In this document: positions 10,966 through 37,979 of the stretch, one piece after another
How the letters are laid out: the number at the start of each line of letters is the position of its first letter
Position numbering within the stretch: the first letter of the stretch is position 1
Assembly: GCA_046725795.1 (NCBI GenBank)
Contig: JBKOZI010000020.1
Coordinates: forward strand, 1 to 45,221
Direction of reading: 5' to 3'
Length of the DNA: 45,221 bases
From: Actinomycetota bacterium
Lineage (GTDB): Bacteria; Actinomycetota; Thermoleophilia; Solirubrobacterales; JBBDJG01
The notes under the pieces: generated by a model
Told to the model about the DNA's origin: nothing
Seen by the model: only the letters and a program-made list of their open reading frames with translations
Databases searched by the model: none
Made by a program: the position numbers and the translations under genes

Positions 10966-12075
10966 CTACGAGACCATCTCCACGAACCGGTCGAACAGAT
11001 GCACGGCGTCGTGAGGGCCGGGGCCCGCCTCGGGGTGGTACTGCACGCAGGCGGCGGGCACGTCGTGCAGCACCAGTCCCTCGACCGTGCGGTCGTAGAG
11101 GTTCACGTGGGAGAGCTCCGCGGCGCCAAAGTCCGTCTCCCACCGAACCGGCTCGTCGTGCTCGATCGCGCGTGCACCGCCCGGACCCAGCACCGCGAAG
11201 CCGTGGTTCTGGGCGGTGATCTCGATCTTGCCGGTGGACAGGTCCTTCACCGGGTGGTTCGCGCCGCGATGGCCGAACCGGAGCTTGAACGTCTCGAGTC
11301 CGACGGCTCGGCACAGCAGCTGGTGGCCGAGGCAGATGCCCCAGACCGGGACCCGGCCGACGAGCTCCCGAACGGTCCCGACCACGTGGTCGAGCGCCGC
11401 CGGGTCGCCCGGTCCGTTCGCGAGGAAGACGGCATCCGGCTCCTGAGCGAGTACTTCGTCTGCGGAGCTCCCGCAGGGCATCAGCACGAGGCGGCAGCCC
11501 CGCTGCTGCAGGTTTTTCACGATCGATCGCTTGATGCCCGTGTCGAGCGCGACGACCCTCGGCCCATCGCCCTCCGCTCCGATCACGACCGGCTCCGGAG
11601 GCGAAACGTCACGCGCCAGGTCCCGTCCATCCATCGAGGGCTCGGCCTCGATCAGCTCGCGCGCCTCGCGCTCGCTCACGGCCCCCGGAAAGACCCCGCC
11701 CCGCATCGCGCCCTCGTCGCGAATGTGCCGGACGAGCGCCCGCGTGTCGACGCCGCTGATCCCGGGCACGCCCTCGGCAGCGAGCCAGTCGAGCCAGCCT
11801 TTGGACCCCGCCGGCCGCTCATTCCGCGCTTCGCGCATGATCACAGCGCGGGCGTGAATCTCACTCGACTCGGCGACATCTGGAGAAACGCCGTAGTTGC
11901 CGATCAGCGGGTAGCTGAAGGTGATGATCTGGGCCCCGTAGGAAGGATCGGTGACCGCTTCCTGATAGCCCGTCATGGCCGTGTTGAAGACGACCTCGCC
12001 GACGGCGTGGACGGGCGCGCCGACGGCGACCCCGTCGAGGCGCGTCCCGTCCTCGAGTAGCACGAACGCGCTCAT
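10966..12075 (-). CDS. carA: Carbamoyl-phosphate synthase small (glutaminase) subunit
   Basis: [15 protein letters not shown]...[10 protein letters not shown] and GATase [12 protein letters not shown] at 12075 overlaps the upstream stop as ATGA. The track ORF extension to 12312 is spurious. Confidence 0.95.
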
Positions 12076-12611
12076 TTCACGAGCGCCTGGACTTCTCTGA
12101 ACTCCGGCGCGTCCGCTCCGCGAAGCAGCTCGAAGAGGGCGGTCTCGACGCTCGTCAGCACCGCCCCGCTTCGTTCCATCTTGTGCAGGCCGAGCGCTCG
12201 GTTCTCGGCCGTCCTCGAGCTGACCGCGTCCTGGACGACGTGCACCTCGCGGCCCGTGGCGAGCAGGTCCTCGGCCGTCTGGTTCACGCACACGTGCGCC
12301 TCGATCCCGCACAGCAAGACCTGGTCGCGCTCGTCGTCGAGCGCCGCCGGGAAGCCGTCCGCACCGAGCGCGCTGAAGCTGACCTTCTCGAGCGGAGCGA
12401 CGCCCTCGAGGTACTCAGCCACCTCCGGCACCGTGTGACCCAGGCCCTTGGGGTACTGCTCGGTGACGAGCAGCGGGAGCCCGAGGATCCGCGCACCCTG
12501 TACGAGCACACCGGCGTTGCCTGCGACCCGCTCGAACTCGAGCACCGCCGGGCGGAAGGCCTCCTGCACGTCGATCACCGCGAGCGCGACGCGGCCACGG
12601 TCCAGCTTCAC
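12072..12611 (-). CDS. Isochorismatase-family cysteine hydrolase, embedded in the pyr operon
   Basis: ALAVIDVQEAF (Asp), EKVSFSAL (Lys) and LLCGIEAHVCVNQTA (Cys) match the D-K-C family pattern. The GTG start overlaps the pyrC stop (GTGA) and its stop overlaps the carA ATG (ATGA). Confidence 0.85.
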   Translation of the reverse strand: MKLDRGRVALAVIDVQEAFRPAVLEFERVAGNAGVLVQGARILGLPLLVTEQYPKGLGHTVPEVAEYLEGVAPLEKVSFSALGADGFPAALDDERDQVLLCGIEAHVCVNQTAEDLLATGREVHVVQDAVSSRTAENRALGLHKMERSGAVLTSVETALFELLRGADAPEFREVQALVK

Positions 12612-13984
12612 CGCCGCCCTCCTGGGCCGGCAACCAGGGAGTCCCTCGCGAGCCGGATGGAAAAGGCGCGATCGCGGTATGCGACGACCCCGGCGGCGAC
12701 CGTCATCAGCACTCGGCCCCGAACCTCCCGCCCGGCAAAACAAGAGTTCTCCGAGCGGCTCTCGTAACCGGCTTCCCCCACAGTCCAGGCGGCGTCGAGG
12801 TCGATCAGGCAGAAGTTGGCGCGCGCACCCGGCGTCAGCGTCGGCGGCGCGAGGCCGTACGGCGTGCCGCCCGCCGTCAAGCGCTCGACGAGTAGCCGCA
12901 GGTCGATGACGCCGGGCAGCACGAGGTCCGTGTAGAGCGCGGCGAAGGCCGTCTCGAGCCCCGTGACGCCCATCGGAGCCTGCTCGAACGGGGCCTCCTT
13001 CTCCTCGCGCGAATGGGGGGCGTGGTCGGTCGCGATGCAGTCGATCACGCCGGACCGAAGCCCTTCGATCAATGCGCGGCGGTCGTCCTGCGATCGCAAA
13101 GGTGGATTCATCTTGAATCGCGGGTCCAGCGAACGCACTGCCTCGTCCGTGAGCGCCAGGTGATGCGGAGTGACCTCGCAGGTGAGCTCGATGCCGGCGG
13201 CCCTGGCGTGCTCGACGGCGGCGACGGACTCGGCTGCGGACAGGTGCAAGACGTGGAGCCGCCCGCCCTCGTAGCGCGCGATCTGGGCGTCGCGCTCGAT
13301 CATCGTGCTCTCGGAGATCGACGGGATTCCGGCGAGGCCGAGCAGCGCAGAGACGGCGCCCTCGTGCATGACGCCGTCAGCCGAGAGCGCCGGGTCCTCC
13401 TCGTGCAGGGCAAGTACGCCGCCGGCAAGGCGCTGATACTGGAGCGCCTGCTGCAGGCGCCGCGCATCCGCGACCGGTACGCCGTCGTCGCTGAAGCCGG
13501 CCGCGCCCTCACTGGAGAGCTCGACCATCTCGGTCAGCTCCGCGCCCGCCTGTCCCCTCGTGATCGCAGCGAGGAACCCGACGGGGACGACAGCCTCGAT
13601 GCCGGCCCGCTGCTGAAGCGAGCGAAGCACCGATGCGTTGTCGGTCACGGGTTCGGTGTTGGGCATCGCGAGCACGCAACAGAAGCCGCCCGCGGCGGCC
13701 GCGCGCGTGCCCGATTCGAGGTCTTCCTCGTCCTCCCGTCCCGGTGTGCGGAGGTGGACGTGGGGATCGACGAAGGCCGGGAAGAGATGCAGACCCTCCC
13801 CCTCGATCGACTCCGTCACATCGTCGGGATCCAGCGTGCCGGGCGGCGCGAGCTCGGCGATCTGCCCGTCGCGCAGGAGCACGTCGTGCCTGCCGTCGAG
13901 CCCGGCCCGCGGATCGAGTGTGTGCACGCTCTTCACGACGAGCGACGCGGGGGCACCCGTGCGCGCCGAGAGGCGCACCCTCAT
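12608..13984 (-). CDS. pyrC: Dihydroorotase
   Basis: FVDPHVHLRTPG, ATDHAPH and an amidohydrolase fold. ATG at 13984 overlaps the pyrB stop (ATGA). The track ORF extension to 14344 overlaps pyrB. Confidence 0.93.
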   Translation of the reverse strand: MRVRLSARTGAPASLVVKSVHTLDPRAGLDGRHDVLLRDGQIAELAPPGTLDPDDVTESIEGEGLHLFPAFVDPHVHLRTPGREDEEDLESGTRAAAAGGFCCVLAMPNTEPVTDNASVLRSLQQRAGIEAVVPVGFLAAITRGQAGAELTEMVELSSEGAAGFSDDGVPVADARRLQQALQYQRLAGGVLALHEEDPALSADGVMHEGAVSALLGLAGIPSISESTMIERDAQIARYEGGRLHVLHLSAAESVAAVEHARAAGIELTCEVTPHHLALTDEAVRSLDPRFKMNPPLRSQDDRRALIEGLRSGVIDCIATDHAPHSREEKEAPFEQAPMGVTGLETAFAALYTDLVLPGVIDLRLLVERLTAGGTPYGLAPPTLTPGARANFCLIDLDAAWTVGEAGYESRSENSCFAGREVRGRVLMTVAAGVVAYRDRAFSIRLARDSLVAGPGGRR

Positions 13985-15595: not shown

Positions 15596-16588
15596 TCAGG
15601 ACGCGTCCGGGAACGACTGAGAGGCCGCCTCCGGACGCGTCCGCTCCCGGTGCTCGCGCAGGCTCATCGCGACGGGCAGGCCGCGCTCGGGATACGGCAC
15701 TTCGATCACGTCGAAATCGCGGGGAACGACCACCGGCTGGAAGGCGGACTCTGCCTCCTTCTCGATCACGGGCGCGAAGTACCTCGACGAGAGGTGCGTG
15801 AGCGCCAGCAGCGAGACCTCGGCGGCCCGCGCGACCTCGGCCGCCTGGCGCGCGGTCGAGTGTCCCGTCTGGCGCGCGCGCTCGACCTCCTCCTCGGCGA
15901 ACGTGGCGTCGTGAACGAGCAGTTGCGCGTGGTGGGCGATCGCGATCGTCGACTCGCAGGGTTCCGTGTCGCCGCTGAAGACCAGCTTGCGACCCGGCCG
16001 AGGCTCGCCCATCACGTCGCGCGGCGCGATCGTCCGAGCGCCGGCCTGGACCGGCTCGCCGCGCTGGAGGAGCCCGAACTGCGGCCCGGGCTCGACGCCG
16101 AGCTCGGCCGCGCGTGCCGGGTCGAACCGACCGGGACGGTCGTCCTCGACGAGCGCGTACCCGAGTGCCTCGGTGCGGTGCGCGACCGCGTATGCGCCCA
16201 CCCGGTACGCGTCGAGCTCGACCGCCTCGGTGGGCGCCAGCTCCACGAGCCGGACCTCGTAGCTGAGCTTCCCGTAGATCCGGCGCAGGTCCGCCATCAA
16301 CGCTCGCAATCCGCGCGGTCCGTAGATCGTGAGCGGCACGCTTCGCCCGCGGAGCGCGAACGTCTTCATCATGCCGGGAAGGCCGAGAAAGTGGTCGGCG
16401 TGGAAATGCGTGAGGAAGACGTGCTCGATGTCGGGAAGGCCGACTGACCGCAGCAGCTGGCGCTGCGTGCCCTCGCCGCAGTCGATGAGCAAGCGGTCTC
16501 CGCCGCGCCTGATCAGCAAGCTTGTCGGAGCGCGCTGGACGGTCGGCATCGAGCCGGCCGTGCCGAGGAAGAGAACGGACAGGTCCAT
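15596..16588 (-). CDS. rnz: Ribonuclease Z (MBL-fold tRNA 3' endonuclease)
   Basis: MDLSVLFLGTAGSMPT, LIDCGEGTQRQL and FLTHFHADHFLGLPG motifs. 330 aa. Confidence 0.9.
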   Translation of the reverse strand: MDLSVLFLGTAGSMPTVQRAPTSLLIRRGGDRLLIDCGEGTQRQLLRSVGLPDIEHVFLTHFHADHFLGLPGMMKTFALRGRSVPLTIYGPRGLRALMADLRRIYGKLSYEVRLVELAPTEAVELDAYRVGAYAVAHRTEALGYALVEDDRPGRFDPARAAELGVEPGPQFGLLQRGEPVQAGARTIAPRDVMGEPRPGRKLVFSGDTEPCESTIAIAHHAQLLVHDATFAEEEVERARQTGHSTARQAAEVARAAEVSLLALTHLSSRYFAPVIEKEAESAFQPVVVPRDFDVIEVPYPERGLPVAMSLREHRERTRPEAASQSFPDAS

Positions 16589-16621
16589 GGCCGCGCGTAT
16601 CTTCGCGGAAGCGGCGCTGGG

Positions 16622-17809
16622 CTACGGGGAGAACTGAAGTGGAAGTCGCAGCAGGTCGCGGTCCCACGTCAGCTGGCAGGCGGCGTTGTAGTGAAGCCGC
16701 ACGTAGTAGAGGTAGGCAGTCGCGTCCGTGATCCTGAAGTTGCGGTCCGAGCTGTCGTGGTCGATCAGGGACGGATACGCAAGGGCATCCGGGCCGCCGC
16801 ACTGATGGCTGATCAGGCTGGGCGCCTCCATGATCAGCTGCCGCATCGACCAGTGCACGAGGTCATCGGACGTCGAGAAGAAGAATCCGTAGACGTACCG
16901 GCTCTGCGACGGCTCGAACTTGACCGCTGAGCCGGTGAGGACGTACTTGCCGAGAGCCGTGTTGTAGGTGACCGACCGCGACATCCCGAGGATGTTCTCG
17001 TACGAGGCCGCCTCACAGGTATGCGTTCGCAACGGGGTCACGTTCTCATAGAACGCGTTCCGGAAGCGCACGCTGAAGGCGCTTCCGTCCCAGCCTCGCC
17101 AGCTTTGCGGATCGGCGATGTCGCGTGTTCGCATGACACATACACCGACATCCTGCTTGTCGGATTGGATCAGCGACAGGTGGTAGTAGTAGCTGCCCTT
17201 CTTGATCGGATTGCTGGGCGCGGCGAGGCCGGTGCGCGAGTCGTCGATCGTCGGCCGCGGCGGCACGGCCGAGACGAGGTTGTCCGGCGGCGCGGGGGCC
17301 GAGTAGGTGTCGCCGCCATCGTGCGAGACCGCGAACGTGTTGGCGACGAAGCCGCATCGGCGTTGGCCGGATCCGGCCGGGCAAGCGCCCGGGATCTCCC
17401 ATCCGTGCCACTCGTGGTGGACGATCGCGTACACGTCGCGGCCGTTCTCCGTGTAGAGCCCGTTCAGCCAGTGTTGGTAGTTGAAATGAGCGGGGTTGGG
17501 GTCGAATTGCGAGGGAAAAATAGGCTGGCACTCGCGCGTGAGGTGCTGGAAGTCCGGGCCCACCATCCGCCGGGTGGCCGCATTCGGCGTGACGAGCTGA
17601 ATGCGGTTCGTGAAGTCCCTCAGGACCTGCGTCGTCCCGTCCGGGATGTCGAAGTCGTCGCAGCGCGCCGTGGTCCAGTCGAAGACCATCTCCTCCGGCC
17701 CGGTGACGCTCACGCTCACCGCCTGCGCCGCGCCGGAAAAAAACGAAAGACACTGCAGCCCCGCCGCGATGCAGATCGCGAGCGTCACCCTGAGGATGCG
17801 GCCGCTCAT
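16622..17809 (-). CDS. Secreted hypothetical protein, Asp-box / beta-propeller glycosidase-like
   Basis: ATG at 17809 follows GAGGGGGTGAGGGA. Signal peptide MSGRILRVTLAICIAAGLQCLSFFSGAAQA. One Asp-box SHDGGDTY, an STSDDLVHWS motif and several Cys. GC is lower than in the flanks. Confidence 0.7.
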   Translation of the reverse strand: MSGRILRVTLAICIAAGLQCLSFFSGAAQAVSVSVTGPEEMVFDWTTARCDDFDIPDGTTQVLRDFTNRIQLVTPNAATRRMVGPDFQHLTRECQPIFPSQFDPNPAHFNYQHWLNGLYTENGRDVYAIVHHEWHGWEIPGACPAGSGQRRCGFVANTFAVSHDGGDTYSAPAPPDNLVSAVPPRPTIDDSRTGLAAPSNPIKKGSYYYHLSLIQSDKQDVGVCVMRTRDIADPQSWRGWDGSAFSVRFRNAFYENVTPLRTHTCEAASYENILGMSRSVTYNTALGKYVLTGSAVKFEPSQSRYVYGFFFSTSDDLVHWSMRQLIMEAPSLISHQCGGPDALAYPSLIDHDSSDRNFRITDATAYLYYVRLHYNAACQLTWDRDLLRLPLQFSP

Positions 17810-17916
17810 CTGTCCCTCACCCCCTCGCTCGAACCCTAGCACCGCCTTGTACCGTTGCCTGCATGGTGACGGCCTGGCCCACGTTCCCACCGGGACATAC
17901 GCCGCGGCTCGAGCGG

Positions 17917-18570
17917 ATGCTGATCACGAAGTACTTCGTCTTCGTCCACGTTCCCCGAACCGGTGGCAACTTCATCCGCGATGCCTGTTTTGAGCAGCTT
18001 CCGAGCGAGTGGCTCATCCGCAACGCCCTGCCGCTGCACACTCCCTACGACGAGCTTGCCCACGACTTCTTCGACCTGCCGATGATCTGCTTCGTGCGGA
18101 ACCCCTGGGATTGGTACGTGTCGTGGTACCACCATCAAACCCAGCACTATCCAGGGGATCGCAGGGGCGCGATGTGGACATCCGCGTTCGGCAGCGGTCG
18201 AAACGACTTCCGGCAAACGGTCTACAACTGCTGCACGGGCGAGAACTTCGAGAGCCCGGTCACGGCTCCGATCATGAAAGAGCTCGACGTCGACCACTAC
18301 ACGGCCCGCTTCATCCAGATCACGGGTTCCGGCATCGAGTCGGGGCAACTCGAGACGGGCCGCTACGAGGCGCTCCAGGGTGACTTCCAAGCGTTTCTCG
18401 AGCGACACGACGTACCTGTCGGCGACGCCTTCTTCAAGCGGCTGGAGAAATCGGCGCCGAAGCACACGACGGATCGGGGACCGTACCGCGACTACTACGA
18501 CGAAGAGCTGCGCGATCTGGTCGGGAGCAAGGCGCGGCTCCTGATCGAGCGCTACGGGTACGAGTTCTGA
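17917..18570 (+). CDS. Sulfotransferase (family-2-like)
   Basis: The 5'-PSB-like FVHVPRTGGNF and the 3'-PB-like CFVRNPWDWYVSWY. The start is taken at the internal ATG 17917 (MLITKYFVFVHVP). The track start at 17863 is possible. Confidence 0.75.
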   Translation: MLITKYFVFVHVPRTGGNFIRDACFEQLPSEWLIRNALPLHTPYDELAHDFFDLPMICFVRNPWDWYVSWYHHQTQHYPGDRRGAMWTSAFGSGRNDFRQTVYNCCTGENFESPVTAPIMKELDVDHYTARFIQITGSGIESGQLETGRYEALQGDFQAFLERHDVPVGDAFFKRLEKSAPKHTTDRGPYRDYYDEELRDLVGSKARLLIERYGYEF

Positions 18571-19301
18571 GGGCGGGCTCGAGTGAAGAGCGCGTCGACG
18601 AAGTCCACTCCATCGTTACCGCGCTTGAGGCCGTCCAGCAGGTCGTACAGCGCGAAACCGTGGCTGTCCATAAGTGCGATGAACTCGGCGAACGAGGCAC
18701 CGTCTGCGAAGGGACGCGTGATCGAGACCTCGGCGATCACGAACTCGGTGTCTCGAAGGAGCGCCGCGGCGCCCTCGATCACGCGGTACTCGTAGCCTTC
18801 GGCGTCGATCTTCAGGCCGAACGGGCCCTTCCAGCCCCGCTCGGACCGTAACGCGTCGAGCGTCGTCACTTCGATCTCGCGCCGCTCGAGCGCCTCACGT
18901 TGCTCGGCGCCGCGCCATTCGTTCACGAGCAGCGAGCTCTCGTAGAGCATCGCCGGATTGATGTGGATCTCGGCTCGCCCGGGTGCCGCCCCGACAGCCG
19001 CAAGCACGTACTCGCCACCCCGCCGCCTGCAGATTCGCTGAAGGTCCTCCTCGAACTCGGCGAGCGGCTCGATCAGCACGAAATGCGCGTCGGAGAACGC
19101 GTCGTAGAGGTTCGGCGTGCCCCGGGCGGCGCCCACGTCGATCACCGTGGCCGGCGCGAATCCCGGCTTGCGGAGGTTCTCGGGGCGCCAGCCTGTCTCG
19201 CGCCTCCACTCCTCCTCGTTGTCGGCTCGACGGCCGACCCGCCACAGCATGAAGGCAAATTCGTCCGGCGGCCCCACGCGGGGCGAGTGTACGTCATTCA
19301 T
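18552..19301 (-). CDS. FkbM-family SAM-dependent methyltransferase
   Basis: VIDVGAARGT SAM motif and LKIDAEGYEYRVIEGA, the FkbM signature. The start is uncertain: ATG 19301, GTG 19316 or ATG 19250. The 3' end overlaps the convergent sulfotransferase by 19 nt. Confidence 0.8.
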   Translation of the reverse strand: MNDVHSPRVGPPDEFAFMLWRVGRRADNEEEWRRETGWRPENLRKPGFAPATVIDVGAARGTPNLYDAFSDAHFVLIEPLAEFEEDLQRICRRRGGEYVLAAVGAAPGRAEIHINPAMLYESSLLVNEWRGAEQREALERREIEVTTLDALRSERGWKGPFGLKIDAEGYEYRVIEGAAALLRDTEFVIAEVSITRPFADGASFAEFIALMDSHGFALYDLLDGLKRGNDGVDFVDALFTRARPQNSYP

Positions 19302-19316
19302 TCGTATGCTGAGCAC

Positions 19317-20408
19317 ATGGATTCACAGGCGCTGGAACGCGAGCTGATACGCCTGGGACCGTGGCACATCGAGGTCGACGTGGTGCCCGGTCTGACGACC
19401 AGGGCGGGCTTCGATGTTTCGCCCGGGATGAATTCAGATTCGTTCGATGGCTTGACGTTCAAGTCGCCGAAGAAGCGCTTCCTCGGGCTGCTCGAACGCG
19501 CCTATCCGAATGGTCTCGAGGGTCGCAGTGTGCTCGACTGCGCCTGTAACTGCGGCGCCTTTTCCTTCTTTGCGAAGGAAGCCGGAGCGGGCGAATGCCT
19601 TTCCTTCGACGCTCGCGAGCACTGGATCGAGCAGGCGCGCTTCCTTGCCGAGCATCGCACCGCACCGACGGATCGCATGCGCTTCGAGGTCTGCGAGCTC
19701 GATGCCCTTCCGGCACTGGGCGCGGGGCCATTCGACTTGACGATCTTCAATGGGATCTTCTACCACCTCCCCGATCCGGTGCGTGGACTGAAAATCGCCG
19801 CCGACCAGACGAGCGAGCTGCTGATTCTCAACACGGCGGCGAAGATCGGCTACCCGGAGGGGGCGTTGGTCGCTGCGCGCGAGCCGCCCGAGCACGTCCT
19901 CTCAGGCGTCCACGGGCTCAACTGGTTCCCGAGCGGCCCAGCGGTACTGGCGAGCATCCTCGAATGGCTGGGGTTCCCGGCGACCCGCTGCACGGTCTGG
20001 CGTGCCACGCGGGTCGGCCTGGGACAGCTCGAGATCCTGGCCGCCCGCGATCCAGGCACCTTCGACGCGTTCGACTCCACCCGCGTGGGCGCCAAGGGAG
20101 TGCGGGAGGTCGTCACGACATCGACGCCTCCCGGCGCGACGGTCCTGGTCGTGAGCCGCGGGCGCGAGCGCCTGCTCGATCTCCCGGGCCGCGAAGCAGT
20201 GGATTTCGAACTCGATTCGGGCAACGACCCGATCAAGCGCTTGACGGAGCAGCACGCCGCCGGTGCCGACTATCTGCTGGTCCCCGACGCGGCCCTCGCG
20301 CCCGAGGACGCGCGCGTGCTGGGGGCAATCGAGGGCCGGTTCCTGCTCTACTCGCGCGCGGACGGCCTTTGCCGCATATTCGCTCTGTGGGGCGAGCCGG
20401 AGGCCTAA
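19317..20408 (+). CDS. Class I SAM methyltransferase (DUF1698/CmoB-like N-terminal region) with an extra C-terminal domain of about 130 aa
   Basis: LGPWHIEVDVVPGL, VLDCACNCGAFSF and FNGIFYHLPDP. ATG at 19317 lies 6 nt after TATGCT. The track ORF start at 18900 is spurious. Confidence 0.8.
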   Translation: MDSQALERELIRLGPWHIEVDVVPGLTTRAGFDVSPGMNSDSFDGLTFKSPKKRFLGLLERAYPNGLEGRSVLDCACNCGAFSFFAKEAGAGECLSFDAREHWIEQARFLAEHRTAPTDRMRFEVCELDALPALGAGPFDLTIFNGIFYHLPDPVRGLKIAADQTSELLILNTAAKIGYPEGALVAAREPPEHVLSGVHGLNWFPSGPAVLASILEWLGFPATRCTVWRATRVGLGQLEILAARDPGTFDAFDSTRVGAKGVREVVTTSTPPGATVLVVSRGRERLLDLPGREAVDFELDSGNDPIKRLTEQHAAGADYLLVPDAALAPEDARVLGAIEGRFLLYSRADGLCRIFALWGEPEA

Positions 20409-21130
20409 TCCTCGAGGCGGGACGTGCTCGCAGGTTCGGCGAGCATCTCTTCACCGAGAGGCGTCAGCCGCCAGCGACCAGGCGCAACCTTCTCCACCCA
20501 TTCGGCGTTGAGGGCCCGCAACATCACGCTGCGCACGGTCGAGTAGCAGTATCCCCTCTCCCGGAGGTCCGCCGCGGCTGCCTTCGCCGGGCTTCTCGCG
20601 CCCTCCGCGGAGTGAAGCACGCACGACCAGACGACCGCCGCGTGCCGCCGCAGGTCGCGACGCTGGCGAGCAACCGGGGCTGTCGCCAAGTCGATCTTGA
20701 ACCCAAATTGCTCCAGGACTTCGCCGTGGCCTGCGGCCTCCATCAACTCGGCGTTCTGGCGAAATGCCCGGAGCACTCTCGCCTCCGACACCCTGCGGGC
20801 GGCCGGCTCGTCCATTGGCGCCTCAGGCATCGCTCGGGAATCGAGGCGGTTCGGGACGACCTCGATACTCTCGACCATCGGCTCCCCATCGCGCTCCCGA
20901 ACCGTGCCGCGAAGGAGTCGCCCCGGTGGCTCGGGGTCCGACCGTTCCGCGTCGAGCGGAAGCTCGACCACCGCCACCGGGACTCGCTCACCGTCCCTCT
21001 CCTCGTGGAGGAAGTGTGCAGTCGGGGCCCGGTCCGGCCTTTGCACTTTCACTTGTTCGACTTCCGCGTTCACAATCGAAACACGCCTTGAATCCGCCAC
21101 GATGACAACGTGGGCGGACACTCGGGTCAC
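20405..21130 (-). CDS. Hypothetical protein with a C-terminal winged-helix-like segment
   Basis: The codon pattern is consistent with coding but atypical. The C-terminus, AAAADLRERGYCYSTVRSVMLRALNAEWVEKVAPGRWRLTPLGEEML, looks like a wHTH. The N-terminal two-thirds has no motif I recognise, and the start is uncertain. Confidence 0.5.
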   Translation of the reverse strand: MTRVSAHVVIVADSRRVSIVNAEVEQVKVQRPDRAPTAHFLHEERDGERVPVAVVELPLDAERSDPEPPGRLLRGTVRERDGEPMVESIEVVPNRLDSRAMPEAPMDEPAARRVSEARVLRAFRQNAELMEAAGHGEVLEQFGFKIDLATAPVARQRRDLRRHAAVVWSCVLHSAEGARSPAKAAAADLRERGYCYSTVRSVMLRALNAEWVEKVAPGRWRLTPLGEEMLAEPASTSRLED

Positions 21131-21195
21131 GAAATCGGGTCACAATTCGCCCGAATCCGTTCCTCCCCCGCTCCAGGCCGAAACCCATTCCGCTC

Positions 21196-21201
21196 TAGAA
21201 T
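21196..21201 (+). promoter_or_regulatory. Candidate -10 box (TAGAAT) 9 nt upstream of tRNA-Arg
   Basis: ctcTAGAATgcgccgcgaGCGCGCA. No convincing -35. Confidence 0.35.
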
Positions 21202-21210
21202 GCGCCGCGA

Positions 21211-21283
21211 GCGCGCATAGCTCAGTGGATAGAGCGCTGGCCTCCGGAGCCAGAGGTCGCAGGTTCGAATCCTGCTGCGCGCG
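21211..21283 (+). tRNA. tRNA-Arg (anticodon CCG), 73 nt, CCA not encoded
   Basis: Folded by hand. Acceptor GCGCGCA/TGCGCGC, D stem GCTC/GAGC, anticodon stem CTGGC/GCCAG with loop CTCCGGA, variable AGGTC, T arm GCAGG-TTCGAAT-CCTGC, discriminator G. Confidence 0.95.
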
Positions 21284-21288
21284 TGGCT

Positions 21289-21990
21289 CTACAGCGCGAG
21301 CGCGCGCAGTTCCGCGTAGAGCGCCTCGATCTCCGACGGGAGCGAACCGCCGTCGACGCCCGCGTTCCGCAGCTCGTCCGTGAAGAACGGCTCGCCGGGC
21401 GGCGCGGCCGGCAGGCCCACCAGCTCGCCAGCTTCCCGTAGCTTCGCCTCCAGGACCGGTGCGTCGTCGTCGAAGGAGACCACCGGAAACGGCCCCTCGG
21501 CGTGCACTGCCACGAGGCGCCGGTTGTACGTTCGCCACAGCGCGAGGCTCGTGTCGAAGTCGAGCTTGTTGCGGTGCGCGAGCGATTGTGCGACCCGCAG
21601 CGGATGCCGGAATATCCCGACCGGCTGCAAGTCGGGCACGAGCTGCCGCCAGCCGTCGAGCGTGAGCAGGGTGCGCGGGTCCTTGAACCCCCAGACCGGG
21701 CACCCGGCGTGCTCGGCAAGGATCGTCCGGGCTCTTTCCAGGTGCTCGGGCTGCCACTCCACCACGGCCGGCGGCCTGTCCCAGGCTCCACCGTTCGCCT
21801 CGAGAATGTCGCCCTGCAGATCCATGATGTCGAAGCGCTCGCGGTTGCCGCGGGGGTTGAACGGCCCCTTCGTGTTGACCTCTCCCAAGAACAGCCCCTG
21901 CTGCTCCAGGGAGCCGGCGAGACAGCTCGTGCCGCTTCTGTGCATCCCGAGCACGCAGATCACGCGCTCGGGCCGGGCTCCGTCAGCCAT
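21289..21990 (-). CDS. Sulfotransferase (Stf0-like P-loop)
   Basis: ICVLGMHRSGTSCLAG is a PAPS 5'-phosphosulfate loop, followed by WGFKDPRT. 233 aa. The stop lies 5 nt from the tRNA 3' end. Confidence 0.8.
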   Translation of the reverse strand: MADGARPERVICVLGMHRSGTSCLAGSLEQQGLFLGEVNTKGPFNPRGNRERFDIMDLQGDILEANGGAWDRPPAVVEWQPEHLERARTILAEHAGCPVWGFKDPRTLLTLDGWRQLVPDLQPVGIFRHPLRVAQSLAHRNKLDFDTSLALWRTYNRRLVAVHAEGPFPVVSFDDDAPVLEAKLREAGELVGLPAAPPGEPFFTDELRNAGVDGGSLPSEIEALYAELRALAL

Positions 21991-22735
21991 CGAGGTAGCC
22001 GAAGCGCGTCAGCGCCGGGGTCGCAATCTCCTCGAGCCGGCGGACGAGCTCCCGGTCGGCTTTGCGCCAGCGCCCCAACGTCGGCGGCGGCTCCACCTCC
22101 TGGGCGAGTTCGGCGGCGTCGCCCCGGAGCTCGAGGAAGTCGAGCACGCGCGCGACGGCCGCTTCGGGCTCGGCGCACAGGTCCTCAAACCGGATCCGGA
22201 GGTATCGCTCGCCGAGCTCGCTCTCGCCCGCGTCGGCAGCGGCCAGGTTGGCGGCGTTCCATAGCGCGATCGAGCGCGGCGGCGAGATGTCGGGCTCCGC
22301 CGGCGCGGGGCCGAGCACCGCCCACGCATGCTTTCGGACCTGGTTCTGGTTCTTCGAGAAGGCGAGGTCGCGCCCGTCGCGCACCACGTGCACGAAGCGC
22401 AGTCCCGGCAGCACGCGCGCTAGAAACGGGATCAGGAAGATGCTGCGCGGTTCCTTCCAGCCCCAGCGGGTGCCGTCGTCGCCGGCGCGGTGCTCACGGA
22501 GCAGCGTGAGGAGCTCCTCGGACATTTGCGTCTCGATGCCGGCCTGCTGTTGGAGAAACGGGTTGATCCATCGGTCGTAGTACGCCGCCACGTCCAGCCA
22601 GTCCTCAGCCGGGTTCAGGTTCGTGCCGATGAAGAGCCCTGCGCGACGAGCGACACGCGCCACGACACGTGTGCCCGAGCCGCCGGTCGCGCCCATGATG
22701 CTGGGGGGCGGGGCGGTCGGATCCGGTACTCCCAT
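21983..22735 (-). CDS. Sulfotransferase
   Basis: IMGATGGSGTRVV, WGWKEPRS and HVVRDGRDLAFS (3'-PB-like). Overlaps the downstream sulfotransferase by 8 nt. Confidence 0.8.
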   Translation of the reverse strand: MGVPDPTAPPPSIMGATGGSGTRVVARVARRAGLFIGTNLNPAEDWLDVAAYYDRWINPFLQQQAGIETQMSEELLTLLREHRAGDDGTRWGWKEPRSIFLIPFLARVLPGLRFVHVVRDGRDLAFSKNQNQVRKHAWAVLGPAPAEPDISPPRSIALWNAANLAAADAGESELGERYLRIRFEDLCAEPEAAVARVLDFLELRGDAAELAQEVEPPPTLGRWRKADRELVRRLEEIATPALTRFGYLDG

Positions 22736-22743
22736 CGCGGTTG

Positions 22744-22790
22744 ATCATAGGCGGCGGTCTCCTGCTACCGAGCACGTAGCTCACTAAAAT
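22744..22790. promoter_or_regulatory. Divergent promoter pair with -10 boxes positioned for leaderless mRNAs
   Basis: On the minus strand, TATGAT (22749..22744) lies 8 nt before ATG 22735. On the plus strand, TAAAAT (22785..22790) lies 7 nt before GTG 22798. Confidence 0.45.
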
Positions 22791-22797
22791 CGCCGGC

Positions 22798-23784
22798 GTG
22801 GAGAGCGGCGAAGTCGACGTCTGCGACTTGATCGCCGCGCCCGAGCGCTTCGGCGAGCGGGGCGAGGCTGCCGAATCGATGACGCTCGAGCAGCTCGTCG
22901 CGCTCGCGCACCGGATCGACGACGGAAAGGTCGAGGAGGCCTCGTGGAGGCGAGTAGGACTCGACCCGGCTACCAAGCTCGGCGCGCTCGATGCGGATGA
23001 CCGCGAGTGGTTCGCGGACATATTGCGTTTCTGGCAGACGAAGCCGCACGGCGTGAGCGAGGCCGTCTCGCCCGCCGACTGGATTCATAGCCGGGCACCC
23101 GAGCGGTACTACTCGACGGGCCGCATGACGATCCGCCGGGTACGACTGGCGCAGCTCCAGACCCGCAAAACGGCGGTGCGACGGATCCTCGACTTCGGCT
23201 CGGGGTACGGGCGCATCCTGCGCCAGTTCAAGGCCGCCTTTCCAGAAGCGCGACTCGCGGCCTGCGATATCCACCAGGAGGCGGTCGACTTCTGCGCCGA
23301 AACTTTCGGGGCCGAGCCGATCTATGCAGCGGACGATCCCGGTGAGACGAAAGTGGAGGGCGAGTTCGACCTGATCTTCGTCGGGTCCCTCTTCACGCAC
23401 CTCGACGCGCCGCGTTGGAAGAGCCTGTTCGACCTGCTCGAGCGGGTGCTCGAGCGCGACGGACTGCTCCTGTTCACGACGCAGGGCCGCTTCATCCGCG
23501 ACCAGGTTGCCGAGCGGACCTGGCGCGACGCTTTTGATCGCCCGATCTGGGTCAATTGGGGCGTGACCGAGGAGCAGCTCGACCAGATGGTGTCGGACTA
23601 CGACCGGGACGGTTTTGGCTACCTCGAGTGGTCCGCCCTCGATCGGCAGTACGGCACGTCGATCGCAACGCCGGCGTGGGTGCTCGGGCAGCTCCAGACC
23701 AGGCCGGGATTCGAGATCGTGTCCTACTGGGAGCGGGGCTGGAAGCCTCAGGACCTCGTAGTCTGCGTCGGAACCCGTTCCTAG
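22798..23784 (+). CDS. Class I SAM-dependent methyltransferase
   Basis: ILDFGSGYGRIL (motif I), ACDIHQEAV and FDLIFVGSLFTHL. 328 aa. Confidence 0.8.
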   Translation: MESGEVDVCDLIAAPERFGERGEAAESMTLEQLVALAHRIDDGKVEEASWRRVGLDPATKLGALDADDREWFADILRFWQTKPHGVSEAVSPADWIHSRAPERYYSTGRMTIRRVRLAQLQTRKTAVRRILDFGSGYGRILRQFKAAFPEARLAACDIHQEAVDFCAETFGAEPIYAADDPGETKVEGEFDLIFVGSLFTHLDAPRWKSLFDLLERVLERDGLLLFTTQGRFIRDQVAERTWRDAFDRPIWVNWGVTEEQLDQMVSDYDRDGFGYLEWSALDRQYGTSIATPAWVLGQLQTRPGFEIVSYWERGWKPQDLVVCVGTRS

Positions 23785-24581
23785 CCCGACGCGCGCTCGA
23801 GCGCTTCCCGGGACTTGCGCTCGCGCTCTGCCGCCTGCTCGACGGACCTCCTCGCCTGCCGCGCCGCCGCTTCGGCACGCCGGACCTCACGGGTCGCTGC
23901 ATCGGCGGCCTTCCGGGTCTCGGCCAGACGGTGCTCGGCCTCGCCGGCCTTCTGGCGCGCCTCGTCCGCCGCGGAACGCGCAGCTTCGAGGCGCCGTCGC
24001 GCGTTCGTCAGGCGTGTCGGCGCCTTGCTCGAAGCGGCTTTCGGGCCCGCCCCCGCAGGGCGGCTTCCGGTTGCGGTCGTGCCGAGCCCGAACCCGATCG
24101 CCCGCCGCTCCTTGGTCAGCCGGCCGCTGCCGACCGCGGCAGCTGCCTCCTCGTCCACGGCTGCGGCATGCAAGGTGTCGCGGATCTCCTCGAGCGTGGC
24201 CTCGCTTGGCCTCGCGCCGCTCTGCTCCAGGATCCGCCCGGCGTCCGCGAGCAGTTGCTCCACCAGCCGGCGTTCGCGCTCCGACAGCGCGAGGGTGTCG
24301 CCTCTGTCGCCGCCGGCGACCAGGCTTGCCTGCGCCTCGCGCAGCTGTTCGCCGATCTCGAGAAGCTCTCGAACACGATCGGGCTCCTGCCGCAGGAGCT
24401 GGTTGACGGCCCACGCCGCGGTGGTCGGCTTCCTCGCGGCTGCGACCTCCTTGCCGGCCTCCGGGTCGCCCTCGCCCCTTAGCCGCTTTGCGAGCGCATT
24501 CCTCGCCGCCGTGAAATCGCCGAGCGGGAGGCCATAGAGATCCTCGAGTCCCGCAATTTCCGCATTTTTCGGCCCGGCCAT
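23781..24581 (-). CDS. Conserved hypothetical protein with a charged coiled-coil C-terminus
   Basis: The N-terminus is LYGLPLGDFTAARNALAKRLRGEGDPEAGKEVAAARKPTTAAWAVNQLL. The C-terminal 70 aa are R/E/A-rich heptad-like. Confidence 0.65.
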   Translation of the reverse strand: MAGPKNAEIAGLEDLYGLPLGDFTAARNALAKRLRGEGDPEAGKEVAAARKPTTAAWAVNQLLRQEPDRVRELLEIGEQLREAQASLVAGGDRGDTLALSERERRLVEQLLADAGRILEQSGARPSEATLEEIRDTLHAAAVDEEAAAAVGSGRLTKERRAIGFGLGTTATGSRPAGAGPKAASSKAPTRLTNARRRLEAARSAADEARQKAGEAEHRLAETRKAADAATREVRRAEAAARQARRSVEQAAERERKSREALERASG

Positions 24582-24906: not shown

Positions 24907-25191
24907 CTATGCGACGCGGCTGCGGGATCGGAGTGGCGTTTGATCGAGGTTGTCCAGCAGCTCTTCGAGCGACTCGAACACGACGGTTGCGCCGGCCTCG
25001 AGCAGCTCCATCTCGGAGAACCCGCCGGTGAGGAGCGCAATGGTCTCGATCCCACAGCGTTTCGCCGCCTCGCAATCCCAGGTCGAGTCCCCCACCATCA
25101 CGGCCTCTCCCCCGCCCGCCTTCTCGATCGCACCGGCCACGAGGTCGGGTTGCGGTTTGGTTCTCTTCACGTCCCCCGAGGTCGTTACCCG
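24907..25191 (-). pseudogene. 5'-truncated HAD-superfamily phosphatase remnant (motifs III and IV only)
   Basis: It retains SGDVKRTKPQPDL (motif III Lys) and VMVGDSTWDCEAAKRCG (motif IV). The DxD nucleophile and motif II are missing, and the space where they should be is occupied by the DUF72 gene on the other strand. Confidence 0.6.
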
Positions 25192-25197
25192 TTTTGG

Positions 25198-25965
25198 GTG
25201 GTGCGACGCTCGGGTATCAATGAAAGCGTCCACCTGAAGCCTGTCCACATCGGCTGCTCGGGCTGGAACTACGCCCACTGGCGCGAGGTCGTCTACCCGA
25301 AGGGGCTACCGCAGAAGCGCTGGCTCGAGCACTACGCGACGCTGTTCGGCACGGTCGAGATCAACAGCACCTTCTACCGGCTGCCCAAACGCTCGGCGGT
25401 GGCGGGATGGGCCGAGCGCAGCCCGCCCGGCTTTCTGTTCGCGGTCAAGGCGAGCCGCTACCTGACGCACATCAAGCGGTTGACCGAGATGCGCAGCGGC
25501 ATCGAGCTGTTCTACGAGCGGATCGAGCCGCTGATCGAGGCGGGAAAGCTTGGCCCGGTGCTCTGGCAGCTCCCGCCGAGCTTCCGGCGCGACGACGAGC
25601 GCCTCGCGTCCGCGCTCGCCGAGCTCCCCGCGGGACACCACGCTTTCGAGTTCCGGCACGAGAGCTGGTTCGTGCCCGGGGTCTACGAGCTGCTCCGGAG
25701 CCACGGCGTTGCGCTCGTGATCGGCGACACGCCCCAACGCCGCTTTCAGAGCCATGAGCTCACGGCCGACTGGACCTTCGTGCGCCATCACTATGGGTCG
25801 CGCGGGCGTAACGGCAACTACTCCGACCGCGAGCTCGCCGAGTGGGCTGAGCGGATCCGAGAATGGCGCAAGAAGGTTGAGGTGTACGCCTACTTCAACA
25901 ACGACTGGAACGGCTTCGCGGTGCGCAACGGGCTCGCACTCAAGCGCCTTCTAGAGCTTCGGTAG
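25198..25965 (+). CDS. DUF72 (YecE/UPF0759) family protein
   Basis: HIGCSGWNYAHWREVVYP...YATLFGTVEINSTFYRLP...YAYFNND. The start is taken at GTG 25198 or 25201. The track ORF start at 24697 is spurious. Confidence 0.85.
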   Translation: MVRRSGINESVHLKPVHIGCSGWNYAHWREVVYPKGLPQKRWLEHYATLFGTVEINSTFYRLPKRSAVAGWAERSPPGFLFAVKASRYLTHIKRLTEMRSGIELFYERIEPLIEAGKLGPVLWQLPPSFRRDDERLASALAELPAGHHAFEFRHESWFVPGVYELLRSHGVALVIGDTPQRRFQSHELTADWTFVRHHYGSRGRNGNYSDRELAEWAERIREWRKKVEVYAYFNNDWNGFAVRNGLALKRLLELR

Positions 25966-33748: not shown

Positions 33749-33765
33749 CTTTGTCTCCTTAAATG

Positions 33766-33793
33766 AAAAACCTCTGCCCGGGTGTGGCAGAGG
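33766..33793 (-). terminator. Intrinsic terminator forming the expression platform of the SAM riboswitch
   Basis: The minus strand reads CCTCTGCC-ACACCCG-GGCAGAGG followed by TTTTT, 18 nt upstream of the start codon. Confidence 0.8.
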
Positions 33794-33814
33794 TCTCATT
33801 GGGAGATGATCCCT

Positions 33815-33948
33815 CCCCCACATCTCCCAGGCTTGAACATGGAGCCTGCTGGAATTGGCACCGTTTCTCGCCGCGGGAAATTCCCTTGGCTCAGAATGGT
33901 TGCCGGGGCTTCAAAGGGCCAGTCCCTCCACCCCTCTGGATGCAAGAG
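33815..33948 (-). promoter_or_regulatory. SAM-I (S-box) riboswitch aptamer
   Basis: The minus strand reads CUCUUGCAUCCAGAGGGGUGGAGGGACUGGCCCUUUGAAGCCCCGGCAACC...GGUGCCAAUUCCAGCAGG...CCUGGGAGAUG. All conserved SAM-I cores are present: GGUGGAGGGACUGGCCC, GAAxCCCGGCAACC and GGUGCxAAUUCC. Confidence 0.9.
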
Positions 33949-37976: not shown

Positions 37977-37979
37977 GCC

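Follow-up and report, generated by a model that had tools for sequence, protein, structure and literature searches.

The genes adjoining tRNA-Arg in a soil Solirubrobacterales bacterium form a lineage-conserved locus, the products of which most probably modify and trim a surface sugar polymer synthesised by enzymes from other loci; taken as a whole, we hold this explanation to be somewhat better than an even bet. The features concerned, within the window (the entire 45,221 nt stretch of DNA analysed), are as follows, with core denoting genes shared with related contigs:

15596..16588, minus strand: rnz (RNase Z; TIGR02651, 316.7 bits), conserved left flank, 84 % identity in relatives
16622..17809, minus strand: G1, secreted beta-propeller with Asp-box, 395 aa, core
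17863..18570, plus strand: G2, sulfotransferase, Sulfotransfer_1/2-like (PF00685), window-specific extra
18552..19316, minus strand: G3, FkbM-family SAM methyltransferase (TIGR01444, PF05050), core
19317..20408, plus strand: G4, class I SAM methyltransferase (Methyltransf_31; DUF1698/CmoB-like at threshold), window-specific extra
20405..21073, minus strand: G5, near-orphan of 222 aa with C-terminal winged-helix topology, window-specific
21211..21283, plus strand: tRNA-Arg(CCG) (ARAGORN; Rfam, 74.9 bits)
21289..21990, minus strand: G6, divergent Sulfotransfer_3-like protein (PF13469 below cut-off; homologues), core
21983..22735, minus strand: G7, Sulfotransfer_3 sulfotransferase (PF13469), core
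22798..23784, plus strand: G8, class I SAM methyltransferase (Methyltransf_25/12/11/23), core
23781..24581, minus strand: G9, Ala/Arg/Glu-rich coiled-coil protein without a Pfam match, right edge

Gene orientation alternates in exactly the order previously given (- + - + - tRNA - - +), which limits co-transcription to G6 and G7. These two genes overlap by 8 bp, and G7 and G8 are divergent, with 62 bp between them. Amongst the ORFs of the 45-kb window, most of which were scanned against Pfam and the remainder identified through synteny with annotated relatives, no glycosyltransferase, flippase/polymerase, exporter/transporter, PAPS-synthesis gene or PKS/NRPS occurs; the first-pass annotation had made this point for the block, and it holds for the window. 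Precursor peptides and lipid-synthesis genes were likewise not found there.

With regard to conservation, the co-occurrence on which that annotation had made its reading depend extends beyond this contig, as G1, G3, G6, G7 and G8 together occupy the interval from rnz to DUF72/LigD in no fewer than seven related contigs, at 61–84 % protein identity. The order pyrB-rnz-G1-G3-(tRNA)-G6-G7-G8-DUF72-LigD is seen in L001, L002 and L010, where identities are 61–67 % for G1 (adjoining rnz in each), 71–84 % for G3, 69–72 % for G6, 63–74 % for G7 and 72–73 % for G8, with flanking genes at 84–91 %. Partial versions of this order are present in L089, L091, L093 and L096, and eight further contigs, paired by their identical lengths, are common to the match lists of G1 and G6. 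The tRNA-Arg(CCG) lies inside the block in L001 and L002 too, and is a resident tRNA, conserved within the block of relatives. The slot beside it holds G4 and G5 here, whereas relatives may carry a methyltransferase, an AlgX-like O-acetyltransferase or a SnoaL-fold protein there, amongst others; this variable slot suggests combinatorial tailoring. HAD, SnoaL and G9 genes come and go amongst relatives (G9 is present at 63 % in L002 and 44 % in L048, and absent from L001 and L096), and the sole genes peculiar to this window are G2, G4 and G5.

The earlier proposal of glycan tailoring gains support from paralogous loci, and the gene content of these makes a glycan the best-supported candidate substrate. 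Elsewhere in the order, paralogues of G1, G2, G6 and G7 lie amongst GT92/GT4/GT2 genes, methyltransferases, AlgX and APS kinase. Three non-syntenic Solirubrobacterales loci illustrate such arrangements: L017 reads GT92-ST3-ST3-GT92-G1 paralogue, L022 reads ST3-ST3-GT-GT4-MT(G4-like)-MT(G8-like)-x-G1 paralogue, and L025 reads GT2-G1 paralogue-MT(G8-like)-AlgX-x-GT4-MT(G4-like). In cultured A. brasilense Sp7 and Chelatococcus, G1 homologues are found in same-strand GT-MT-GT4-x-GT4-pyruvyltransferase clusters, in Bradyrhizobium one adjoins rfbBACD and GT2 genes, and in L004 one accompanies rmlC/rmlD, glycosyltransferases, a methyltransferase and a pyruvyl transferase.

The glycosidase-like propeller G1 provides further support for the same proposal. 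This protein has no match in the Pfam scan, and its family comprises upwards of 120 clusters, with 374 or more loci amongst GTDB representatives. Its AF2 model is a confident beta-propeller (pLDDT 93.5, pTM 0.89), for which the best Foldseek match is EndoMA1 (8ic1; E 4.7e-9, TM 0.50/0.42, 12 % identity), followed by GH130/62/43/32 enzymes, with nearly all matches being five-bladed glycosidases. G1 does not match PF13810, and its best-scoring relative, at 29.8 bits, falls short of the 39.5-bit cut-off. From the model, G1 would belong to an uncharacterised glycoside-hydrolase-like family that distantly resembles GH183/DUF4185, although G1 is no member of that Pfam family, and hydrolytic activity may be expected of it. 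A signal peptide and Asp-box had been proposed, and both features are apparent: G1 alone amongst the block proteins has an N-terminal hydrophobic signal-like segment, and the Asp-box (S162-H-D-G-G-D-T-Y) is invariant across the family, as are D57/H131/E133 and four Cys. In Flavobacteriales, the methyltransferase adjoining the G1 homologue is spermidine-synthase-like and has a housekeeping neighbourhood.

Three sulfotransferases had been called, of which G7 and G2 score above Pfam cut-offs and G6 falls below, although its homologues support the assignment. G7 scores 59.6 bits against Sulfotransfer_3 (PF13469; cut-off 27) and carries the motif VVRDGRDLAFS with an atypical PSB loop, GGSGTR; in alignment, its orthologues do not have the usual PSB-loop Arg. 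Paralogues of G7 reside within the glycosyltransferase clusters of L017 and L022. G6 reaches 20.6 bits against the same profile and cut-off, and contains HRSGTS and FRHPLRVAQS motifs. It has 2803 homologues, many with PF13469 and one named a sulfotransferase by NCBI, and hhalign relates it to the G7 family (E 4e-5); a 66 % homologue is flanked by two GT92 genes. The match of G2 to Sulfotransfer_1 (PF00685; 26.5 bits, cut-off 22) is partial, covering residues 58–115, and its motifs are HVPRTGG and RNPWDWYVS. Amongst 284 G2 homologues, one of 57 % identity is accompanied by five GT92 genes, YdjC and APS kinase; none was found at the G1–G3 junction in L001, L002, L010, L089 or L091.

The methyltransferase calls made previously are upheld, G3 being FkbM by profile (TIGR01444, 71.1 bits; PF05050, 57.5 bits) and G4 and G8 class I enzymes. 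G3 is the most conserved gene of the block (69–84 % identity in 12 related contigs), and may start at 19301 or later instead of 19316. G4 matches Methyltransf_31, just passes for DUF1698 (24.0 against a cut-off of 23.8) and has a C-terminal extension; it was not found at the syntenic loci of relatives, and the G1 paralogues of L019 and L022 have G4 homologues of 44–48 % nearby. G8 matches Methyltransf_25/12/11/23 behind an N-terminal extension of ~115 aa and shows 72–75 % identity in L001, L002, L093 and L096, and in L025 a 39 % homologue and the G1 paralogue are 42 bp apart. G5, described from the outset as an orphan wHTH protein, has three other representatives amongst 1.84 billion proteins, and its AlphaFold (AF2) model (pLDDT 74) ends in an H-H-H-b-b, winged-helix topology at residues 145–203. 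A fold search against the PDB gave no significant match, and a search of phages and plasmids no match at all. Within the block, G5 ranks last in both GC3 (0.78) and codon likelihood, and it probably stands outside the enzyme set.

The label of accessory island, with atypical GC and codon usage, does not suit the core, and variable extras are limited to G2, G4 and G5. It is scarcely tenable that the block in its entirety was acquired horizontally, as a genomic island integrated at tRNA-Arg. The block does adjoin a tRNA with variable gene content beside it, a G5 homologue has an HTH_3 gene and small uncharacterised ORFs as neighbours, and composition dips slightly, with GC 1.6 points lower (66.7 % vs 68.3 % for the window) and GC3 at 0.849 vs 0.883 (p = 0.026), a difference driven by G5, G4 and G2. 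The GC anomaly is, however, marginal, as sliding 7.2-kb windows span just 66.3 % to 70.3 %. Moreover, 60-nt lines with at most 60 % GC make up 12 % of the block and 11 % of the window, the right half of the block (G6–G8) has 68.7 % GC, and the low GC of G1 and G2 sits at first codon positions, so that it reflects amino-acid composition. For synonymous-codon likelihood there is no difference between block and flanks (p = 0.195), the Pfam scan revealed no integrase or recombinase, and the window contains neither a copy of the tRNA ends nor other bounding repeats. Together with the retention of core and tRNA at one chromosomal position in relatives, amongst orthologues diverged to 61–84 % identity, this indicates that the core is most likely a vertically inherited Solirubrobacterales chromosomal locus rather than an acquired island; at most G2, G4 and G5 are recent arrivals, with related genomes probably their source. 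It is also unlikely, albeit deserving of attention, that a recombination-tolerant gap between housekeeping blocks has simply gathered independent single-gene units with no common substrate or pathway. Such an origin would suit the alternating orientations, without an operon beyond G6–G7, and the varying content, as L090 retains G3 beside rnz, lacks G1 and has no G6–G8 within 2.2 kb, and G9, HAD and SnoaL are variable. It would also suit the 79 % G2 homologue that a close relative carries between relA and DAGK with a methyltransferase alongside, and the 82 non-syntenic G1 loci, where sulfotransferases show no proximity enrichment and occur in Thermoleophilia only. It is harder to reconcile with a five-gene core that stays together in at least seven contigs despite its divergence, with the conserved G7/G8 divergent pair and G6/G7 overlap, or with the regrouping of the same families around G1 paralogues in non-syntenic, glycosyltransferase-containing clusters.

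A substrate other than a glycan is decidedly improbable. Under this alternative, the enzymes would act on a lipid, a small natural product, or a peptide or protein that is secreted (tyrosine sulfation of the RaxST/TPST kind), with G1 either unrelated or the target. Amongst solved structures, those closest to the G7 family are indeed tyrosylprotein sulfotransferases and the CurM polyketide sulfotransferase (family profile: TPST2 2.4e-13, CurM ST 2.5e-12, 2zq5 5.9e-12), alongside the glycopeptide sulfotransferases StaL and Teg; these top matches are nevertheless biased, because no bacterial glycan sulfotransferase from this family is represented in the PDB. Natural-product pathways frequently employ FkbM and class I methyltransferases, and one G6 homologue adjoins an acyl-CoA dehydrogenase and a GDSL lipase. 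Against this, the window has no precursor peptide, PKS/NRPS or lipid-synthesis gene, paralogues sit amongst GT92/GT4/GT2, AlgX and APS-kinase genes, and PF13469 also includes the oligosaccharide sulfotransferase NodH (PMC11625862). Very unlikely, finally, is that G1 is a catabolic glycosidase secreted against exogenous plant, fungal or microbial polysaccharide, and merely a chance neighbour of the transferases. Its fold does resemble degradative GH43/GH62/GH130/GH183 enzymes, and in Flavobacteriales its domain heads a T9SS-secreted protein of ~1000 aa; yet no sugar transporter, regulator or downstream catabolic gene adjoins G1 here, and the G1 loci of Azospirillum, Chelatococcus, Bradyrhizobium, L004 and several Solirubrobacterales are biosynthetic clusters.

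Under the favoured glycan-tailoring explanation, G6 and G7 would form a translationally coupled cytoplasmic sulfotransferase pair, with G3 and G8 as cytoplasmic methyltransferases and PAPS and SAM as the presumed cofactors; this strain would add the extra sulfotransferase G2 and methyltransferase G4. These enzymes may place sulfate and methyl groups onto the sugars of a glycan at the surface or outside the cell, for which glycosyltransferases from other parts of the genome would supply the backbone. G1, putatively Sec-exported and disulfide-rich, would then trim, release or remodel the polymer outside the cell, and gene exchange at the tRNA-Arg(CCG) slot may make decoration strain-specific. 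The cytoplasmic-then-extracellular order, and any biological role, are conjectural. Counted against the glycan reading were the alternating orientation, the exceptions L090 and L009 (the latter with a 65 % G1 homologue in a different genomic context), the weak profile scores of G6 and G2, the want of glycosyltransferase, export and PAPS genes in the window, the G7 PSB loop without Arg, the lack of sulfotransferase enrichment near the 82 non-syntenic G1 loci, and the spermidine-synthase-like nature of the methyltransferase in Flavobacteriales.

Judged on gene content, the locus is a plausible variant of known polysaccharide-modification loci. A statement that no sulfated counterpart had been described is outdated, as wps-1 of the actinomycete Actinoplanes missouriensis likewise unites sulfotransferases (two, of different families), a SAM methyltransferase and a hydrolase at one locus, for a proposed sulfated polysaccharide; unlike the present locus, it has GT2, GT26, Wzx/Wzy/Wzz and a kinase-like gene (PMC13390465). 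The hydrolase is GH26 in wps-1 and the propeller G1 here, both products being putative. The mycobacterial methylmannose polysaccharide (MMP) is cytoplasmic, whereas G1 has an export signal. The MMP cluster similarly combines methyltransferases with a hydrolase dedicated to the methylated polymer, but has its own mannosyltransferase and no sulfotransferase; the analogy had been drawn to a DUF4185 hydrolase, and MmpH is instead an (alpha/alpha)6-barrel (PMC9883506). GH183 (DUF4185) was traced from extracellular endo-D-arabinanase candidates, and the EndoMA1 catalytic domain is a five-bladed beta-propeller (PMC10509167). Unlike EndoMA1, G1 has no CBM domain, and its genomic setting points to biosynthesis instead of degradation. 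In rhizobia, the methyltransferases NodS and NoeI decorate the Nod-factor oligosaccharide. This tailoring likewise pairs a PF13469 sulfotransferase, NodH (PMC11625862), with SAM methyltransferases on a backbone from other enzymes; unlike those here, the enzymes serve other organisms and another substrate, are non-orthologous and come with no secreted propeller. The synechan (xss) cluster of Synechocystis is likewise reported to have sulfotransferases, within a bacterial EPS pathway, and is, unlike this locus, cyanobacterial (PMC8205485); synechan is cited as the best-known bacterial sulfated polysaccharide (in PMC13390465).

The block at 16622–23784 is a lineage-conserved, probable tailoring and processing locus that lacks glycosyltransferases and carries strain-specific extras. 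Nine features lie between rnz and the DUF72/LigD/Ku genes, and for all of these the orientations given in the first-pass annotation match the gene calls and the tRNA call. They are listed here together with the left flank.

15596–16588, left flank: rnz (TIGR02651, 317 bits)
16622–17809, minus strand: G1, secreted propeller-like protein
17863–18570, plus strand: G2, sulfotransferase-like protein
18552–19316, minus strand: G3, FkbM methyltransferase
19317–20408, plus strand: G4, class I methyltransferase
20405–21073, minus strand: G5, protein with winged-helix topology
21211–21283, plus strand: tRNA-Arg(CCG)
21289–21990, minus strand: G6, Sulfotransfer_3-like protein
21983–22735, minus strand: G7, Sulfotransfer_3 protein
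22798–23784, plus strand: G8, class I methyltransferase

These genes are tightly packed, with convergent overlaps of 19 bp (G2/G3), 4 bp (G4/G5) and 4 bp (G8 and the coiled-coil gene on the right edge, G9), a same-strand overlap of 8 bp (G6/G7) and gaps of no more than 62 bp between divergent pairs; a promoter and terminator scan returned no signal beyond shuffled expectation. By Pfam match or synteny with relatives, the remainder of the 45 kb is of a housekeeping nature, comprising nusA, rimP, dtd, coaBC, gmk, the pyr operon and NHEJ genes, as well as CorA, PGM, DAG kinase, relA, recJ and secDF. The lack of glycosyltransferase, polymerase and export genes remarked upon in the first-pass annotation holds for the block and for all other ORFs of the window (Pfam scan or synteny), and the locus does not have the make-up of a self-contained polysaccharide cluster, be it Wzx/Wzy-, ABC- or synthase-dependent.

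With regard to its origin, the block had been taken for an accessory island of atypical GC content and codon usage, a view that its composition does not bear out. The region has a GC content of 66.7 % against 68.3 % for the window, a dip of 1.6 points, low-GC 60-nt lines occur within it at the same frequency as window-wide, and the synonymous-codon likelihood of the block is not distinct from that of its flanks (p = 0.195). GC3 is somewhat lower (0.849 vs 0.883, p = 0.026), an effect that stems from G5, G4 and G2. There is no Pfam match to an integrase or recombinase among the block ORFs, no match of ≥16 nt to either end of the tRNA within the window, and no direct or inverted repeat bounding the block was found. 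The closest relatives of the window are Solirubrobacterales MAGs. Three related loci (L001, L002 and L010) display the order pyrB-rnz-G1-G3-G6-G7-G8-DUF72-LigD, with identities of 84–91 % for the flanks and 61–84 % for the five block proteins, whilst partial versions of the same order are found in four more (L089, L091, L093 and L096); in L001 and L002 the block likewise encloses this tRNA-Arg(CCG). Eight further contigs, judged by their identical lengths, are common to the match lists of G1 and G6, which is suggestive only, and a metagenome scan seeded with G3 yielded only nine loci, mostly short. Given the presence of the core (G1, G3, G6, G7 and G8) at the same site in all seven loci, its near-native composition, and the lack of integrase and repeats, a tRNA-linked acquired island is rejected; it follows that the core is resident and came by vertical descent. 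The island label does not apply to these five genes, for which the suggested co-occurrence in other genomes is seen in relatives, whereas none of the syntenic loci contains G2, G4 or G5, the composition of which deviates only slightly.

Relatives fill the slot by the tRNA in different ways: L001 and L010 have a SnoaL_2 gene there, L093 an AlgX-like SGNH acetyltransferase, L097 another class I methyltransferase and L002 a gene of unknown type. The locus is also not immutable elsewhere, as in L090 G3 stands directly beside rnz without G1. In a close relative (the contig of protein P0122), a homologue of G2 with 79 % identity, accompanied by a 337-aa Methyltransf_31 gene, lies between relA and DAG kinase, a junction that is empty in the window, where the two genes abut (37976–37980). 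The insertion of this pair suggests that sulfotransferase–methyltransferase pairs relocate as small cassettes.

The three sulfotransferases called at first pass differ in their standing against the profile thresholds of the PAPS-dependent sulfotransferase superfamily (PF13469/PF00685/PF03567). G7 is a clear Sulfotransfer_3 member (PF13469, 59.6 bits vs a cut-off of 27), and G2 passes PF00685 (Sulfotransfer_1) marginally and with a partial match (26.5 bits vs a cut-off of 22), whilst G6 taken alone falls under the PF13469 cut-off (20.6 vs 27 bits) and is instead backed by its homologues, a family of ~2800 proteins of which many bear PF13469, and by hhalign against the G7 family (E 4e-5). PF13469 takes in NodH, an oligosaccharide sulfotransferase (PMC11625862). 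A PDB search with the G7 family profile matches TPST2 (2.4e-13), the CurM sulfotransferase and 2zq5; PDB sequence searches with G6 and G2 gave no match, and an exact-sequence look-up of G7 returned no record. Both PAPS-binding motifs, the 5′-phosphosulfate-binding (PSB) loop and the 3′-phosphate R...S element, are present in all three proteins: HVPRTGG and RNPWDWYVS in G2, a canonical HRSGTS with FRHPLRVAQS in G6, and GGSGTR with VVRDGRDLAFS in G7. The loop of G7 (residues 15–23) is atypical, reading GGSGTR in G7 and its orthologues, with Gly replacing the conserved Arg, where paralogues have G-R-T/S-G-T; its VRDGRD...S motif is kept. From these motifs, the overlapping G6 and G7, of which G6 keeps HRSGTS, may form a catalytic/non-catalytic heterodimer. 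With regard to homologues, one of G6 is placed between two GT92 genes, and one of G2 is adjoined by an APS kinase, with five GT92 genes and YdjC; this kinase is the one indirect pointer to PAPS-dependent sulfuryl transfer. A recurrent arrangement in Solirubrobacterales is that of sulfotransferases flanked by GT92-family glycosyltransferases (L017 3902–9942, L099 3780–8836 and L103 9152–11565).

Amongst the remaining enzymes, G3 belongs to the FkbM family (TIGR01444, 71.1 bits vs 37.7; PF05050, 57.5 bits vs 22.7), and profile searches place both G4 and G8 with the class I methyltransferases. G5 has three relatives among 1.84 billion representative proteins, no homologue in any of the loci compared, and no significant match in phage and plasmid collections. 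Its model has a winged-helix topology at the C-terminal end and drew no significant match from Foldseek.

The most original element of the locus is the G1 family, which is large (374 loci or more, spread over many phyla), uncharacterised, and annotated as hypothetical everywhere. A Pfam scan of G1 finds no domain. It is the only block protein with a signal-like N-terminus, and the secreted Asp-box protein described at first pass is upheld by an Asp-box (S162/D164/G166) that is invariant in an alignment of 44 family members, as are C50, D57, C94, H131, E133, C152, C224, W237, R238, W240, S314 and W320. The AlphaFold (AF2) model is confident (pLDDT 93.5, pTM 0.89), and its top Foldseek match is EndoMA1 (8ic1), a GH183/DUF4185 endo-D-arabinanase, at E 4.7e-9 and a TM of only 0.50; five-bladed GH130, GH62, GH43 and GH32 propellers score nearly as well, and the six-bladed sialidase Neu2 is also listed. 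A PDB sequence search with G1 gave nothing significant (best E 0.097). DUF4185 corresponds to GH183, the retaining endo-D-arabinanases (PMC10509167). A GH183 enzyme would be expected to have conserved catalytic acids, of which D51 of EndoMA1 is one, and to hydrolyse with retention; the invariant acidic residues of G1 include D57 and E133. Sequence membership of GH183/DUF4185 was rejected, as G1 has no match to PF13810 and only 3 of the 44 family members match it weakly, the best (P0052) with 29.8 bits where the cut-off is 39.5. Taking the propeller matches of the model together with the failed DUF4185 membership, G1 is placed in a putative new branch within the superfold of glycosidase-like propellers, outside GH183.

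In many Solirubrobacterales loci, G1 homologues are adjoined by a secreted, Pfam-less repeat protein of ~740–820 aa with units of the form DVYERSAGTT..VSTGP..GNG (e.g. L003 11164–13386 and L009 7585–9807), which also lies just downstream of the G1 paralogue in L011, L012, L017 and L019, and has no counterpart in the window. In Flavobacteriales, the G1 domain forms the N-terminus of a ~1000-aa protein ending in a T9SS sorting domain (Por_Secre_tail; L039 10013–13006, also L037, L045, L046, L049 and L051), and its gene is always preceded by a spermidine-synthase-like gene, in a housekeeping context.

As to the glycan substrate proposed at first pass, the window itself is silent, whilst contexts elsewhere do supply glycosyltransferases. 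Paralogues of G1 with 38–45 % identity reside within glycan clusters of other Solirubrobacterales MAGs, with gene orders as follows (GT, glycosyltransferase; ST3, Sulfotransfer_3 protein; MT, methyltransferase).

L017: GT92-ST3-ST3-GT92-G1 paralogue
L022: ST3-ST3-GT-GT4-MT(G4-like, 44 %)-MT(G8-like)-x-G1 paralogue-APH
L025: GT2-G1 paralogue-MT(G8-like, 39 %)-AlgX-x-GT4-MT(G4-like)

The glycosyltransferase and export or polymerisation genes absent from the window locus are present in these paralogous clusters, as well as in L004 and L104. The latter lies on plasmid p2 of Azospirillum brasilense Sp7 (NZ_CP012916.1, 343108–344253), where, as on Chelatococcus pCO-6 (L105), the G1 homologue sits inside a same-strand GT-SAM MT-GT4-x-GT4-pyruvyltransferase cluster, a design shared by L004; both organisms are cultured. 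Members of this conserved alphaproteobacterial cluster are a glycosyltransferase, a SAM methyltransferase, a GT4, a 720-aa unknown protein, a second GT4, the G1 homologue (annotated hypothetical; WP_051140662.1 in Azospirillum) and a pyruvyl transferase. The Bradyrhizobium homologue adjoins rfbBACD and GT2 genes. Sulfotransferases, however, are not enriched near G1 over 82 non-syntenic loci (distance-shell test), and their families fall outside the top 25 in a Pfam census of genes flanking 71 distant G1 homologues, which gave only modest counts of methyltransferase, spermine-synthase, epimerase and pyruvyl-transferase families. The Flavobacteriales setting of the G1 domain, at the head of a T9SS cargo and in a housekeeping context, also counts against the proposal. 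In the distance-shell test, the 500 bp next to G1 homologues show an enrichment of genes with a methyltransferase fold (p = 0.01), a result that was discounted, its Flavobacteriales part being the spermidine-synthase-like gene. Thus, the link of G1 to polysaccharide biosynthesis is well supported, whilst that to sulfation is specific to Thermoleophilia.

Starting from what is shown, namely family, fold, export signal and gene association, a model can be drawn in which substrate, order of action and activity are putative. Cytoplasmic sulfotransferases G6 and G7 (plus G2) would sulfate, and methyltransferases G3 and G8 (plus G4) would methylate, sugar residues of a glycan, the backbone of which would be assembled by glycosyltransferases encoded elsewhere. 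The exported G1 would process the polymer outside the cell, and exchange in the variable slot would alter decoration between strains. The analogy drawn at first pass with the methylmannose-polysaccharide (MMP) cluster and a DUF4185 hydrolase needs amending, as MmpH is an (alpha/alpha)6-barrel (PMC9883506) and DUF4185 is GH183. The closest described system is Actinoplanes wps-1, with two sulfotransferases, a SAM methyltransferase and a GH26; unlike the window locus, it also has glycosyltransferases and Wzx/Wzy (PMC13390465). Among biosynthetic clusters of other bacteria, wps-1 has its own hydrolase in GH26 WpsE and the MMP cluster in MmpH, to which G1 may be likened. The wps-1 paper names cyanobacteria as the only bacteria from which sulfated polysaccharides are so far on record (PMC13390465), so that a case in Thermoleophilia would remain noteworthy. 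Literature searches found none on Solirubrobacterales sulfotransferases, bacterial GT92–sulfotransferase clusters or the Azospirillum cluster.

A broader reading, which we consider rather unlikely as a whole, joins three claims. G1 would represent a new glycoside-hydrolase (or lyase) family, remotely related to GH183 and dedicated to the producer's own methylated, sulfated or pyruvylated polysaccharides; Solirubrobacterales, abundant in soil, would make sulfated and O-methylated glycans via GT92-type transferases; and the exchange of cassettes beside tRNA-Arg, with sulfotransferase, methyltransferase and acetyltransferase genes, would diversify the surface glycan between strains. Should the glycan model drawn above hold, sulfated and methylated polysaccharide biosynthesis would extend to Thermoleophilia, a major soil group of Actinomycetota that is poorly represented in culture, a widespread hypothetical family would be assigned a role, and A. 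brasilense Sp7 and Chelatococcus would be tractable organisms for its genetic testing. The window adds no chemistry itself, its value being that of a lead for glycobiology and CAZyme discovery.

Beyond the block, Rfam matches in the window are confined to the tRNA and a SAM riboswitch (RF00162, 33817–33946, minus strand, 84.9 bits), which is unrelated to the block and sits immediately upstream of the gene for a PLP-dependent enzyme (32513–33823, PF00291). A HAD hydrolase on the minus strand at 24931–25296 retains only its C-terminal portion of 123 residues, which shares 60 % identity with residues 94–216 of an intact 225-aa gene in L001 (5085–5762) and abuts or overlaps the DUF72 start. The N-terminal catalytic part is gone, and the remnant probably represents a truncated pseudogene where the variable region ends on the right. 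Finally, an isochorismatase domain is fused to carA in L001 (15144–16799, 551-aa product), where L002 has two separate genes (15957–17700); the corresponding stretch of the window is ~10966–12743.
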